A DNA stretch of 64,000 nt from an uncultured Bifidobacteriaceae bacterium (GTDB lineage: Bacteria > Actinomycetota > Acidimicrobiia > IMCC26256 > DASPTH01), in contig CAZDJK010000010.1 of assembly GCA_964505725.1 (NCBI GenBank), forward strand, positions 49,158 to 113,157. The letters are read 5' to 3'. Below the pieces are notes generated by a model that searched no databases, had not been told where the DNA came from, and saw only the letters and a program-made list of their open reading frames with translations. This document shows positions 39,539-42,271 of this stretch, piece by piece. Position 1 is the stretch's first letter. Each line of letters begins with the position of its first letter. The position numbers were made by a program, and so were the translations under genes.

Positions 39539-41143
39539 GTGGGCGTGTACACCTCGGAGCAGTTCACCGACGACGAGGCCGCGGTCCTTCGCCCCTATTT
39601 CACCAACCTCGACCAGCCCGTCTTCGCGCTGGTCAACCTTCCCGAGGTCGTGAAGGGCGCGCTGTTCGCGCGCTACTCGCGCACCCACAAGAGCCTGCGC
39701 CGGCTGTTCCTCGACGAGTTCGTCTCCGATCTCGACCTCACCGGCGACCTCACCGTCGACGCCACCGTCGGCCTCAGGCGCGCCGAGGAGCTCTACGAAC
39801 GGGTCTTCTTCGAGTACGGCGACGACTCCGTCGCGCAGCTCGGCGGCGTGCACCTCGCCTGCGAGCAGGCTTCGAACCTGCTCACGAAGATCCTCGAGTG
39901 GGGACGCCTCATGTCCTACCTCGAGCAGTCGACGCGGTACATCCCGTACGACGCCAAGCTTGGCGGTCGGTATCGCTACTACCGGGACACCGCGGTGCTC
40001 GCGAACCGGGACCTCGCGTGGCGCTACATCGCCGATCTCGACTCGTTGTTCGAGACCTATCGAGGGATGCTCCCGGTACTCACGGACTGGGCGCGCGAGC
40101 GCTACCCCAAGGACCCGGCCGACTCGCACTTCGTGTACAAGCAGACGATCCGGGCCAAGGCCTGTGACGCGGCCCGCGGCGTGCTCCCCGCGGCGACGCT
40201 GTCGAACGTCGGCGTCTACGGCACCGGGCAGGCGTTCGAGGCGCTCCTGCTCCGGATGCGCGCCCACCCCCTGCCCGAGGCGCGCAGCTACGCCGCGCTC
40301 ATGCTGGAGGAGCTGCGCAAGGTGATCCCGTCGTTCCTCACCCGGGTCGACCGTGAGGACCGCGGGATCGCCTGGAGCGCTTACCTCGCGGAGACCCGCC
40401 ACGCGACCGCCGCCCTGGTGGCACGCCTCTTCGACGGGGAGACGGCGGAGCCCCGCCCGTCGGTGACCCTCACCGACTTCGACCCCGAGGCCGAGGACAA
40501 GCTCCTCGCGGCGGTCTGCTACCCGCACACCAGCCTGCCCGAGGACCAGGTGCTCGCCCGGGTCCGCCTGATGGGGCACGACGAGCGGGTCGCGTTGCTG
40601 CGGGCGTACGTCGGCGAGCGGCGCAACCGCCGTCACAAGCCGGGGCGCGGCTTCGAGCGCGTGGGGTACCGCTTCGACGTGCTCGCCGACTACGGGGCGT
40701 TCCGCGACCTGCAACGCCACCGCATGCTCACGATCGAGTGGCAGGCGCTCTCGACGATGCACGGCTACGAGGTGCCGGACCCGGTCGCGGAGGCCGGGCT
40801 CCGCCCTGCGTTCGAGACCGCGATGGCGACGTCGGCCGCGTTGTACGACGCGCTGTCCGACGACTACCCGGGCCAGGCTCCGTATGCGGTGTCGCTCGCG
40901 TACCGGGTGCGCTTCGTCATGCAGATGAACGCGCGCGAAGCGATGCACCTGCTCGAGCTGCGGACCGCGCCCGCGGGACACGCCGCGTACCGGTTCGTGG
41001 GGCAGGAGATGCACCGGCTCATCGCCGAGCAGGCCGGCCACCGCGCGATCGCCGACGCCATGATGTACGTCGACCACCGGGAGTACGACCTCGAGCGCCT
41101 GGACGCGGAGCGCGCCGCGGAGGCGCGCCGCGACGCGGAGTGA
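39539..41143 (+). CDS. Long ThyX-like (FAD-dependent thymidylate synthase family) protein
   Basis: Track ORF 39539..41143 (534 aa). It has an RHR motif (LQRHRMLT) and an ARYSR element reminiscent of ThyX, but at about twice the length of canonical ThyX. Confidence 0.5.
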   Translation: MGVYTSEQFTDDEAAVLRPYFTNLDQPVFALVNLPEVVKGALFARYSRTHKSLRRLFLDEFVSDLDLTGDLTVDATVGLRRAEELYERVFFEYGDDSVAQLGGVHLACEQASNLLTKILEWGRLMSYLEQSTRYIPYDAKLGGRYRYYRDTAVLANRDLAWRYIADLDSLFETYRGMLPVLTDWARERYPKDPADSHFVYKQTIRAKACDAARGVLPAATLSNVGVYGTGQAFEALLLRMRAHPLPEARSYAALMLEELRKVIPSFLTRVDREDRGIAWSAYLAETRHATAALVARLFDGETAEPRPSVTLTDFDPEAEDKLLAAVCYPHTSLPEDQVLARVRLMGHDERVALLRAYVGERRNRRHKPGRGFERVGYRFDVLADYGAFRDLQRHRMLTIEWQALSTMHGYEVPDPVAEAGLRPAFETAMATSAALYDALSDDYPGQAPYAVSLAYRVRFVMQMNAREAMHLLELRTAPAGHAAYRFVGQEMHRLIAEQAGHRAIADAMMYVDHREYDLERLDAERAAEARRDAE

Positions 41144-41191
41144 TCCGGGCTGCTCCGGACGGTGGCCGAGCGAAAAAATTCGCGTGACCCC

Positions 41192-41223
41192 TGACCAGGA
41201 TCGACGCGCGTCGGCGCTGGTCA
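41192..41223 (+). terminator. GC-rich hairpin downstream of the ThyX-like gene
   Basis: tgaccag (41192-41198) pairs with ctggtca (41217-41223). The stem encloses the 12-nt palindrome cgacgcgcgtcg (41202-41213). A smaller hairpin, gcgaa-aaaa-ttcgc, lies at 41169-41182. There is no U-tract. Confidence 0.4.
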
Positions 41224-41284
41224 CGGCGCTCTGCGGTGGCTCCGCCGGCCTTGACAGCGACCCCCGCGGTAGGGCGTACTACGG

Positions 41285-41695
41285 GTCGTCCTGAACCGGG
41301 CGGCAGAGCGGCCTCGGCAAGAGGGTACCGAGCACACTGCGCACGATTCGTGCCATCGGGGGTGAGGTTCCGTGTCCTCGGGGCCGCCGCGGCCGGGAAC
41401 GGACGCGGGGGTTCAGGAGACCAAGTAGAGAACGCTGGAATAACCCCGTCTGCACGGCAGGCAGGGCCAAACAGTGGCCCCAACGGTCTCCTGGACCCCT
41501 CTCCTTTCTCCTGGACCCTCTCTTCGCGCCGGTGTGTCGCGCTGACCAAGGGCACCGACAGTCTGGGCCCCAACGGTCTCCTGGACCCCTCTGTCATTCC
41601 TCTCGCACCGGTGTGTCCGCCGACCAGGGCACCGACGGACTGGACCTTTCTTCTTCCTGTCCGTCCGACGCTCGTACCGACCGCGTCGGGCGGTG
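41285..41695 (+). ncRNA. Candidate structured non-coding RNA / regulatory repeat array (family unknown)
   Basis: There is no credible ORF. TTGACA sits at 41251. The segment 41408-41422 is complementary to three downstream sites and one upstream site. It contains a 27-bp perfect direct repeat with 90-bp period and a terminal hairpin at 41661-41693. Strand and boundaries are guesses. Confidence 0.3.
41476..41592. repeat. 27-bp perfect direct repeat pair (ggccccaacggtctcctggacccctct), 90-bp period, part of a longer imperfect tandem duplication
   Basis: The copies are at 41476-41502 and 41566-41592. The units also share ccggtgtgtc and gaccaRgggcaccgac blocks. The first unit carries an extra internal copy, tctcctggaccc, at 41507-41518. 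Confidence 0.9.
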
Positions 41696-41747
41696 GGAAT
41701 ACCGGGATGACGGCGGCGGTTCGGGACGCGACGCGCCGGATGTGCGG

Positions 41748-41756
41748 TGTTATATT
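41748..41756 (+). promoter_or_regulatory. Putative extended -10 promoter element (tgtTATATT) for the DUF4193-like gene
   Basis: TATATT at 41751-41756 is preceded by TGt, about 30 nt upstream of the ATG at 41786. GGAG lies at 41777-41780. Confidence 0.35.
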
Positions 41757-41785
41757 CCGCGGCCCTTCACCCGCTCGGAGCCCCC

Positions 41786-42271
41786 ATGAGCGACGACGAA
41801 TTCGACGATCCGAACGACATGGAGCTGGAAGAGTTCGACGAGGACGACCTCGACGAGCAGGACCTCGCAGACGACTCCGACGACGTCGACGACCTCATCA
41901 CGGACGACGCCGAGGACGACGACATCGAGCTCCTGCCCGAGGTACCGGTCGCGGTCGTCACCGATGATCCCAGCACCGAGACCGCCGAGGAAGAGGAGGA
42001 CGACGTCCTCGACCTCGACGAGGAGCTCCACCCCGACGACGTCGAGGAGCCGCTCGACGTGCTCCTCCAGGAGCGCACCGCGAGTGCGACCCTGGAGGAC
42101 GATGAGGAAGAGCTCGAAGACGAGGACGTGGATGCCGATGACCGCGGGGATGGGCCCACCCGTATCGTCCCACGGCGTGCCGACGAGTTCCTCTGCCAGT
42201 CCTGCTTCCTCCTCCTCCCGCTGCGCCGACTCGCCGACGAGGAGCGGCAGTACTGCGACGACTGCGCCTGA
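41786..42271 (+). CDS. Highly acidic protein with C-terminal zinc ribbon, DUF4193-like
   Basis: ATG at 41786 within track ORF 41747..42271 gives 161 aa. A long Asp/Glu-rich region is followed by CQSC...CDDC. Confidence 0.7.
   Translation: MSDDEFDDPNDMELEEFDEDDLDEQDLADDSDDVDDLITDDAEDDDIELLPEVPVAVVTDDPSTETAEEEEDDVLDLDEELHPDDVEEPLDVLLQERTASATLEDDEEELEDEDVDADDRGDGPTRIVPRRADEFLCQSCFLLLPLRRLADEERQYCDDCA

Follow-up and report, generated by a model that had tools for sequence, protein, structure and literature searches.

The intergenic spacer at positions 41144-41785 of a 64,000-nt stretch of an uncultured actinobacterial genome (contig CAZDJK010000010.1, positions 49,158 to 113,157; hereafter, the window) contains a conserved, structured non-coding RNA element. 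The spacer separates a gene for a Thy1/ThyX-like protein (39539-41143) from a gene for a DUF4193 protein (41786-42271). The conserved part is a 94-nt rod with strand-specific base pairing, present at a single locus in the window. We identified more than 130 related sequences in uncultured Acidimicrobiia, all of them from metagenome-assembled genomes (MAGs) or metagenomes. The family is new, being absent from Rfam 15 and from the literature that we searched; its overall design is ordinary. With moderate confidence, we interpret the element as part of an independent structured small RNA that would have its own promoter and terminator and that probably binds protein. This RNA would be about 225 nt long in the window genome and about 165-180 nt long in close relatives.

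The spacer had been described earlier from its letters, without database searches (the sequence-only reading), as a possible structured RNA outside known families. The negative Rfam searches and the strong conservation and covariation of orthologous spacers, both detailed below, bear this out. All of the repeats, hairpins, and motifs listed in that reading were found again, at the same positions, when we re-checked the window sequence. Its further suggestions of alternative folds, a protein-binding repeat array, or a decayed mobile element fared less well and are taken up where the relevant evidence is given.

Structure and covariation of the conserved rod

The rod comprises the following parts:

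41407-41500, plus strand: conserved rod of 94 nt, defined by the covariance model, covariation, and folding energy
41407-41422 with 41485-41500, plus strand: P1, a G+C-rich basal helix of 16 bp
41423-41432 opposite 41477-41484, plus strand: internal loop J1, AAGUAGAGAA opposite GCCCCAAC
41433-41437 with 41472-41476, plus strand: P2, a covarying helix (CGCUG/CAGUG)
41438-41443 opposite 41467-41471, plus strand: internal loop J2, GAAUAA opposite CCAAA in the window and GNAAUAA opposite CCAAN in the family
41444-41466, plus strand: P3, a single hairpin in nearly all variants

The window core folds as one rod with a minimum free energy (MFE) of -53.9 kcal/mol and a z score of -5.6 relative to dinucleotide shuffles. 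RNAalifold returned the identical structure, with 11 compensatory pairs, when given 15 genomes aligned with MAFFT alone. A covariance model (R1) built from the 15-genome alignment scores the window core at 114.6 bits (E 1e-27). Forward strands score 81-124 bits with R1, versus 24-38 bits for their reverse complements (27 bits for the reverse strand of the window). The many G-U pairs mark the plus strand as the transcribed one, since they would turn into A-C mismatches if the opposite strand were read.

Covariation was evaluated in 100 sequences, 92 of which are distinct. Standard pairs fill 95.9% of pair cells, and compensatory changes on both sides occur at 19 of the 30 pairs. There are 224 compensatory cells versus 62 in shuffles, and none of 500 shuffles attained any of the measures. 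When the 3' partners were slid by one to three columns as a control, pairing was 35-60%. Compensatory pairing thus exceeds both the shuffled and the register-shifted controls, which is what identifies a conserved structured RNA. The 100-sequence alignment (A4) was fitted to the model structure, which favors that structure; the MAFFT-only alignment (A2) is the one that gave 11 compensatory pairs.

P2 is paired in 100% of the sequences, in forms that include CGCUG/CAGUG, CGUCU/GGGCG, and CGUUC/GAACG. P3, which R1 treats mostly as an insertion, forms one hairpin with 7 bp or more in all but one of 90 distinct variants (89 of 90); the region ranges from 25 to 54 nt across members, and its apical loop is variable. 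J1 and J2 are near-invariant on both strands. Because the metagenome members were selected by their loop sequences, this invariance is independent evidence only in the genome loci found through ThyX; in the 15 loci found in this way, both loops are invariant.

Relatives and size of the family

Relatives were sought by scanning one genome per species with the ThyX-like protein. The scan returned 80 loci, all from Acidimicrobiia or unclassified Actinomycetota MAGs, and the top protein identities are 82-83%. The closest relatives preserve the order of the ThyX-like and DUF4193 genes, with spacers of 470-560 nt. In these genomes, spacer positions 263-365 (window positions 41406-41508) are 82-91% identical in DNA (BLASTN and nhmmer) where the ThyX proteins are 77-83% identical, and most of the spacer outside the core cannot be aligned. 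The alignable blocks are, in order, a hairpin with an A/T loop, a 33-bp palindrome, an invariant CTTGAC, GGGCnTACTAC, CGTCC, a variable region, and the core of about 100 nt. These are followed by a pyrimidine-rich tail, GGGAAT, GGTGTTATATTCCGCG, and the start of the DUF4193 gene.

R1 detected the core in 17 of the 80 ThyX loci, two of which are divergent (L019 and L075). When metagenome contigs were scanned for exact matches to the loop sequences, at least 120 loci were obtained, and R1 matched all 85 of the metagenome loci on which it was run, at 64-121 bits. The pattern-matching set used for the counts of genomic context and promoters comprises 134 loci. Plasmid and phage collections were also searched and contained no similar sequence.

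Putative promoter, 5' domain, and 3' end of the RNA

Outside the rod, three features would belong to the same transcription unit:

41250-41280, plus strand: promoter-like block, with the -35 cTTGACa (41250-41256), an 18-nt spacer, and the weak -10 CGTACT (41275-41280)
41287-41402, plus strand: 5' domain, beginning at the predicted start near the CGUCC block
41501-41512, plus strand: pyrimidine/U-rich tail CTCCTTTCTCCT, immediately 3' of P1

The promoter-like block has the family consensus cTTGACa-N17/18-nnnA[C/A]T. TTGAC is present 5' of the core in 118 of the 134 pattern loci, and 15 of the other 16 have too little upstream sequence; the sole real exception reads TTGAGG-N17-AAGACT. Of 106 sequences, 100 have a C before TTGAC. 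The hexamer 17-18 nt past TTGAC ends in A[C/A]T, as in CGTACT, CTGACT, TTCGAT, CCGAAT, and GAGACT, and 7-9 nt after this putative -10 there is a conserved YCC (CGUCC). The block keeps a fixed register to CGUCC but lies anywhere from 67 to 175 nt from the core. It is this cross-species conservation, and not a consensus scan, that leads us to propose the TTGACa block as the promoter of the RNA. The sequence-only reading had guessed a transcript start at 41260-41290, which fits a start near 41287 as implied by the conserved block.

The 5' domain varies in length and sequence. Among 108 distinct 5' domains of relatives, 74 contain the motif GGUCGUGGG followed by a variable hairpin. The window version, at 134 nt, is the longest seen; its motif is degenerate (AUUCGUGCC), and it has an insertion of about 53 nt upstream of the core. 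In MFE folds, GGUCGUGGG lies in an internal loop of a hairpin whose 5' half is rich in C and whose 3' half is rich in G. RNAalifold returned no consensus structure from MAFFT alignments of the 5' domain, and the fold is tentative.

At the 3' end, T has a frequency of 0.29-0.50 at positions +3 to +7 after P1, versus about 0.13 farther on, and purines are depleted (124 unique relatives). The T-tract is short and interspersed with C, and the preceding P1 helix is stable and G+C-rich. P1 and the tail resemble, and likely form, an intrinsic terminator that would place the 3' end of the RNA at about 41503-41512. A transcript end near 41695, as had been guessed from the letters, does not agree with the conserved RNA, which ends at about 41500-41512. 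Part of the tail, CUCCUUUCU (41501-41511), resembles the 3' end of 16S rRNA (the anti-Shine-Dalgarno region, CCUCCUUUCU); the resemblance is not conserved in relatives and is probably due to chance.

Tandem duplications and the apparent alternative pairings

The sequence-only reading centered on one segment with four alternative pairing partners. The 15-mer GGGGTTCAGGAGACC (41408-41422) has its reverse complement at 41485-41499 and 41575-41589, each over 15 nt and 93% complementary. The 12-mer TCTCCTGGACCC occurs at 41487, 41507, and 41577, and an upstream 9-mer, TCCTGAACC (41289-41297), is a perfect complement of 41410-41418. The window contains four matches to the 15-mer family with at most two mismatches, versus a chance expectation of 0.37, and two exact copies of a 27-mer (41476 and 41566) versus none expected. 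All four partners are thus present in the sequence, but the evidence does not support a designed feature: only the arm at 41485-41500, which is the conserved 3' arm of P1, is kept in relatives. Two duplications account for the second and third partners:

41476-41565 (copy 1) and 41566 to about 41646 (copy 2), plus strand: tandem duplication of about 90 nt, with 80% column identity and one 11-nt indel
41487-41506 copied to 41507-41526, plus strand: nested 20-nt duplication inside copy 1 of the ~90-nt unit

The ~90-nt unit re-copies the 3' strand of J1, the 3' arm of P1, the tail, and a downstream hairpin. All species-level relatives lack both duplications and have a single copy of the 27-mer region, and the window is about 90 nt longer through the duplication. 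Further contigs, from three Joint Genome Institute (JGI) samples (3300036866, 3300036992, and 3300036996), carry the unit two or three times. The 27-mer is present twice in the window and in L201 and three times in L202, with spacers that are otherwise identical and an identical DUF4193 protein; L203 begins within the first of three ~90-nt units. The units span 41476-41646 in the window, 1189-1307 in L201, 847-1056 in L202, and 1-190 in L203. Two or three copies among near-identical strains indicate a recent variable-number tandem repeat and not a conserved device for alternative pairing. The idea of a riboregulator with mutually exclusive helices is therefore not sustained, since relatives have a single 3' arm and the extra arms are tandem duplications. 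These arms lie just past the putative terminator; they are probably not transcribed with the RNA and are likely neutral. A small indel in a C-run, GTCG[CC]CGCTG, is also polymorphic among the contigs of these strains.

The fourth partner (41289-41297) lies in the conserved CGUCC 5' block, and its 9-bp match to the 5' arm of P1 is found in the window alone. The longest helix that the 5' end can form with the 5' arm of P1 averages 6.1 over 94 distinct members, versus 6.0 for shuffled 5' ends. A pairing between the 5' arm of P1 and the ribosome-binding region of DUF4193, noticed by eye in the window, was rejected because the target sequence is not conserved in relatives.

Other features of the spacer and gene neighborhood

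The remaining features of the spacer are as follows:

41169-41182, plus strand: small hairpin GCGAAAAAATTCGC, directly after the stop codon of the ThyX-like gene
41189-41226, no strand assigned: conserved palindrome CTGACCAGnnnCGACGCGCGTCGnnnCTGGTCA, identified as an inverted repeat and in the alignment of relatives
41661-41693, plus strand: GC-rich hairpin with 11-nt arms (91% complementary), between the RNA and the putative DUF4193 promoters
41696-41721, plus strand: GGAAT-N18-GTT (GGAAT at 41696-41700, GTT at 41719-41721), a candidate stress promoter of DUF4193
41748-41760, plus strand: extended -10 tgtTATATT (41748-41756) followed by CCGC, a putative housekeeping-type promoter of DUF4193

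Relatives keep the small hairpin after the ThyX-like gene with an A-run or a T-run in its loop, and the run is flipped in L010, L013, L019, and L026. The palindrome, of 33-38 bp (CTGACCAG...CGACGCGCGTCG...CTGGTCA), is kept at the sequence level across relatives. Its core lies 49 nt 5' of the TTGAC of the RNA in most loci and 39-40 nt in others, spacing classes that differ by about one helical turn. The palindrome accompanies the putative RNA promoter where ThyX is not adjacent (L019 and L075), and its left half is degenerate in L083-type loci. Possible roles are as an I-shaped terminator or insulator for the upstream gene, as an operator or activator site for the RNA promoter, or both.

The G+C content is 0.645-0.685 in the spacer versus 0.70-0.74 in the upstream gene, and the DUF4193 gene is as low as the spacer. 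The remark in the sequence-only reading that the spacer is less GC-rich than its flanks thus holds modestly, and for the upstream side only. Pfam identified the flanking products as a two-domain Thy1/ThyX-like protein and a DUF4193 protein; a gene for apolipoprotein N-acyltransferase is next after the DUF4193 gene. The upstream product is 534 aa long with two Thy1 (ThyX) domains. It is 67-83% identical in the 80 genome loci that match it best, most of which are assigned to Acidimicrobiia or to unclassified Actinomycetota. Canonical ThyX proteins are about 250 aa long, roughly half of this length.

In 109 loci, enough flanking sequence is available to show the gene downstream of the RNA: it encodes DUF4193 in 97, an Mkl/MlaF-like ABC ATPase in 10, and another product in 2. 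On the upstream side, the ThyX-like gene is adjacent in 53 of 81 loci, farther off in 14, and absent from the available sequence in 14; in these latter 28 it is either 1-7 kb away or not found in that sequence. In L019, a LysM/transglycosylase gene intervenes between ThyX and the module, and the palindrome, TTGACA, RNA, and DUF4193 promoter stay together. The module is retained despite changes of the upstream or downstream genes, and the 134 pattern loci all lie in related genomic surroundings. In about 9% of loci (L014, L015, L100, L113, L118, L119, L124, L159, L193, and L194), the RNA is followed by the Mkl/MlaF-like ABC ATPase and a YrbE/MlaE-like permease, as at the start of an Mce-type operon. 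A -10-like TAnnnTCC motif precedes the ABC ATPase gene in L100 and L119.

DUF4193 appears to have promoter elements of its own, located between the RNA and its ATG. GGAAT-N17-19-GTT was found in 67 of 122 unique downstream segments, versus 0.2 expected for shuffled sequence; its median distance from P1 is 41 nt. The window version, GGAAT-N18-GTT, fits the consensus of actinobacterial promoters of the SigH/SigR type, recognized by extracytoplasmic function (ECF) sigma factors. This suggests that DUF4193 in this clade is under the control of an ECF stress sigma factor. The TAnnnTCCS element, which in the window is the -10 at 41748-41760, is present in the downstream segments of 96 of 122 relatives. 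The -10 and CCGC also precede DUF4193 in Acidimicrobiia families that lack the RNA, where the ThyX-DUF4193 spacers are about 100-170 nt, so the DUF4193 -10 would predate the RNA. The proposal that the -10 at 41748-41756 sets DUF4193 apart from the roughly 400 nt upstream agrees with this distribution.

In the families without the RNA (L038, L043, L048, L051, L072, and L074), we identified a TGTGAC-N4-GTCACA palindrome of the CRP/GlxR type 5' of the DUF4193 -10. The DUF4193 family includes M. leprae ML1026 and M. tuberculosis Rv2699c (bioRxiv 10.64898/2026.07.15.738315). Rv2699c has a perfect CRP site at -62.5, among the strongest CRP sites in chromatin immunoprecipitation (ChIP) (PMC4117774), and is induced by starvation in M. 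tuberculosis (PMC3898074). Taken with the CRP/GlxR-type palindrome, the Rv2699c site raises the possibility that CRP control of DUF4193 is ancient; in the clade with the RNA, another control appears to have taken its place or been added to it. AlphaFold3 predicts that ML1026/Rv2699c binds the beta' jaw and the downstream DNA channel of RNA polymerase, and the Rv2699c-family protein is stated to be essential, with depletion sensitizing cells to rifampicin (bioRxiv 10.64898/2026.07.15.738315).

Comparison with known RNAs

None of the 4227 models of Rfam 15 gave a gathering-level match in the 64-kb window, and none matched over 41144-41785 at E<=10. In 20 other members searched against Rfam 15, nothing overlaps the RNA at E<=1. 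A scan for tRNA and tmRNA gave no match. The GAC/GAG-repeat coding region of DUF4193 (41836-41879 in the window, 1175-1221 in L084) has near-threshold matches to Guanidine-II (30.8 bits in L084, versus a gathering threshold of 32) and to several microRNA families, which we rejected as spurious artefacts of the coding repeat. Short resemblances to signal recognition particle (SRP) RNA, T-box, ZTP, a PyrR site, and yybP were dropped since Rfam gave them no support. The literature that we searched on DUF4193 and on structured RNAs of Acidimicrobiia contains no description of this RNA.

Among known systems, the closest in kind are orphan structured RNA motifs of the type described by Weinberg and Breaker, such as raiA, which came from comparative genomics of long GC-rich intergenic regions (PMC8632094, PMC6429828, PMC10861870). 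Like these, the RNA described here has covarying helices, invariant loop nucleotides, a lineage-restricted distribution, and a recurrent gene neighborhood. There are also similarities to 6S and Ms1 RNAs: a stable rod with internal bubbles between G+C-rich helices, a probable protein-binding role that is not antisense, and a lead to RNA polymerase, in that the RNA usually adjoins the gene for DUF4193, a homologue of a predicted RNA polymerase binder. However, 6S RNA (RF00013) was not matched in the window or in 20 members. Whereas 6S is a rod of 150-200 nt with a large central bubble and paired ends, the rod here is 94 nt with a largest loop of about 10x8 nt, the ends of the RNA are unpaired, and its two domains lie in tandem.

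Ms1 is about 300 nt long. Its gene lies between those for a HAD-IB hydrolase and an oxidoreductase (PMC9130861). Identity with Ms1 was ruled out on size and on synteny, the neighbors here being the ThyX-like gene and DUF4193 or the ABC ATPase. No described homologue of 6S or Ms1 was found in the literature for Acidimicrobiia, and the survey of Ms1 makes no mention of this class (PMC9130861).

The rod also resembles the small bacterial 4.5S/SRP RNA, as in E. coli, in being a hairpin of about 100 nt with GGGGG...CCCCC ends and conserved internal loops. Unlike 4.5S/SRP RNA, the RNA here has its conserved loops in the middle of the rod and a variable apical P3, lacks the GNAR tetraloop and domain IV motif, and has no Rfam SRP match. 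Its 3' end resembles the intrinsic terminators of small RNA genes in having a G+C-rich basal helix followed by a U-enriched tract. It differs from typical ones in that the hairpin encloses a conserved, structured insert of 60 nt and the brief U-tract is interrupted by C.

Possible function and alternative explanations

In the interpretation that we favor, transcription would start at about 41287, roughly 7 nt past a weak -10 that follows the near-invariant -35 cTTGACa (41250-41256). The transcript would consist of the variable 5' domain and the highly conserved 94-nt 3' rod (41407-41500), with the 16-bp helix P1 and the U/C-rich tail serving as its own intrinsic terminator. It would then act in trans by binding protein, as a scaffold or as a decoy. 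Near-invariant internal loops combined with free helices and a variable apical loop are typical of RNAs that are recognized by a protein or that form a fixed tertiary motif (SRP, 6S, and Y RNAs), and antisense small RNAs conserve an accessible seed. Because P1, P2, and P3 covary freely and J1 and J2 are near-invariant on both strands, the loops are more consistent with a protein-binding or tertiary motif than with an antisense seed. A more specific version, by analogy, is that the RNA is a functional counterpart of 6S/Ms1 that would bind RNA polymerase, or its complex with the DUF4193 protein whose gene is beside the RNA in 89% of loci, and tune transcription under stress. We consider this unlikely; about 10% of RNA loci have no DUF4193 gene downstream.

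Several observations weigh against an independent, protein-binding RNA. A generic sigma-70 consensus scan of the window called no promoter at the TTGACA block, and the -10 is poor, often lacking the A at position 2 of the hexamer. The duplex energy of the two halves of the 5' domain is no better than that of shuffles (median z -0.64), and the apparent pairing is at shuffle level because the halves are C-rich and G-rich. A terminator hairpin that encloses 60 nt of structured RNA would be unusual. Protein binding is read from the pattern of conservation, and the loop conservation is partly imposed on the metagenome set by the search pattern. Lastly, an RNA upstream of two different genes is also expected of a cis-regulatory leader.

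The main alternative, a real possibility if a doubtful one, is that the element is such a leader, or an attenuator, and controls in cis the gene that follows it, DUF4193 or, in some lineages, the ABC ATPase. Transcription from TTGACA would stop at P1 and the U-tail or read through, in a ratio set by a factor or ligand bound to the loops. Consistent with this, the RNA always immediately precedes a gene on its own strand (DUF4193 in 97 and the ABC ATPase in 10 of 109 loci), much as riboswitches do; it has a terminator-like end; and conserved internal loops with covarying stems also fit a sensor of a ligand or protein. However, DUF4193 has its own conserved promoter elements 3' of the RNA, with the same -10 in families that lack the RNA, and -10-like TAnnnTCC motifs also precede the ABC ATPase gene (L100 and L119). 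P1 is a G+C-rich helix of 16 bp that needs no stabilization, and a search for conserved pairings that could serve as an anti-terminator found none: the 5' end matches P1 no better than shuffled sequence does (9 bp in the window only). Some 130-250 nt of poorly conserved sequence separate P1 from the DUF4193 start codon. The changing neighbors weaken this explanation, and they likewise weaken the idea that the element is merely a 3' untranslated region (UTR), terminator, or insulator of the ThyX-like gene, a large hairpin that would keep transcripts from running on into the stress-regulated promoters of DUF4193 and would have no role as an RNA product. The high stability of the rod, its U-rich tail, and its usual position 3' of the ThyX-like gene (adjacent in 53 of 81 loci) would suit such a role. 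We nevertheless regard it as decidedly unlikely, since a terminator does not need near-invariant loops on two strands, a conserved 5' domain motif, or an invariant TTGACA block, the module persists in the 28 of 81 loci without an adjacent ThyX-like gene (1-7 kb off or missing from the available sequence), and a separate palindrome already stands at the 3' end of ThyX.

A DNA-level repeat, whether a protein-binding array or a decayed miniature inverted-repeat transposable element (MITE) or other mobile element, had been suggested by the inverted and direct repeats in the window, and the copy number of the ~90-nt unit does differ between strains. This now seems highly improbable. The 27-mer and 15-mer have no further copies beyond chance in the 64-kb window, which holds one RNA locus, and species-level relatives carry one 3' arm. 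The context is related in 134 of 134 pattern loci, and compensatory changes and strand-specific G-U pairs point to selection at the RNA level. The single copy in 64 kb, the lack of matches in plasmid and phage collections, and the changing neighbors together argue against a MITE. A small protein encoded, for example, by the open reading frames (ORFs) at 41236-41967 (plus strand) or 41019-41597 (minus strand) is scarcely credible. Several frames across the core are open in most members, as expected at about 68% G+C. Neither ORF has a Pfam match, however, and one plus-strand frame across the core is interrupted by stops in 100 of 100 members. The length differences in the core are not multiples of three (the P3 region falls into classes of 38, 32, and 24 members by length modulo three), and substitutions are compensatory in helices and not periodic. 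The earlier judgment that the spacer contains no convincing ORF stands.

Implications

The spacer offers a caution for reading sequence by eye: the impression of one segment with four partners comes from a simple conserved hairpin to which a tandem duplication was added at the strain level, and not from a switch. Beneath it is a new structured RNA family with more than 130 members in mostly soil-derived uncultured Acidimicrobiia, from which almost no non-coding RNAs have been described. A covariance model, a consensus structure, and a defined gene neighborhood are now available for this family. The invariant internal loops hint at a specific partner, and the usual neighbor, DUF4193, as an essential protein and predicted RNA polymerase binder, is a testable lead for a role of the RNA that may be linked to the polymerase.

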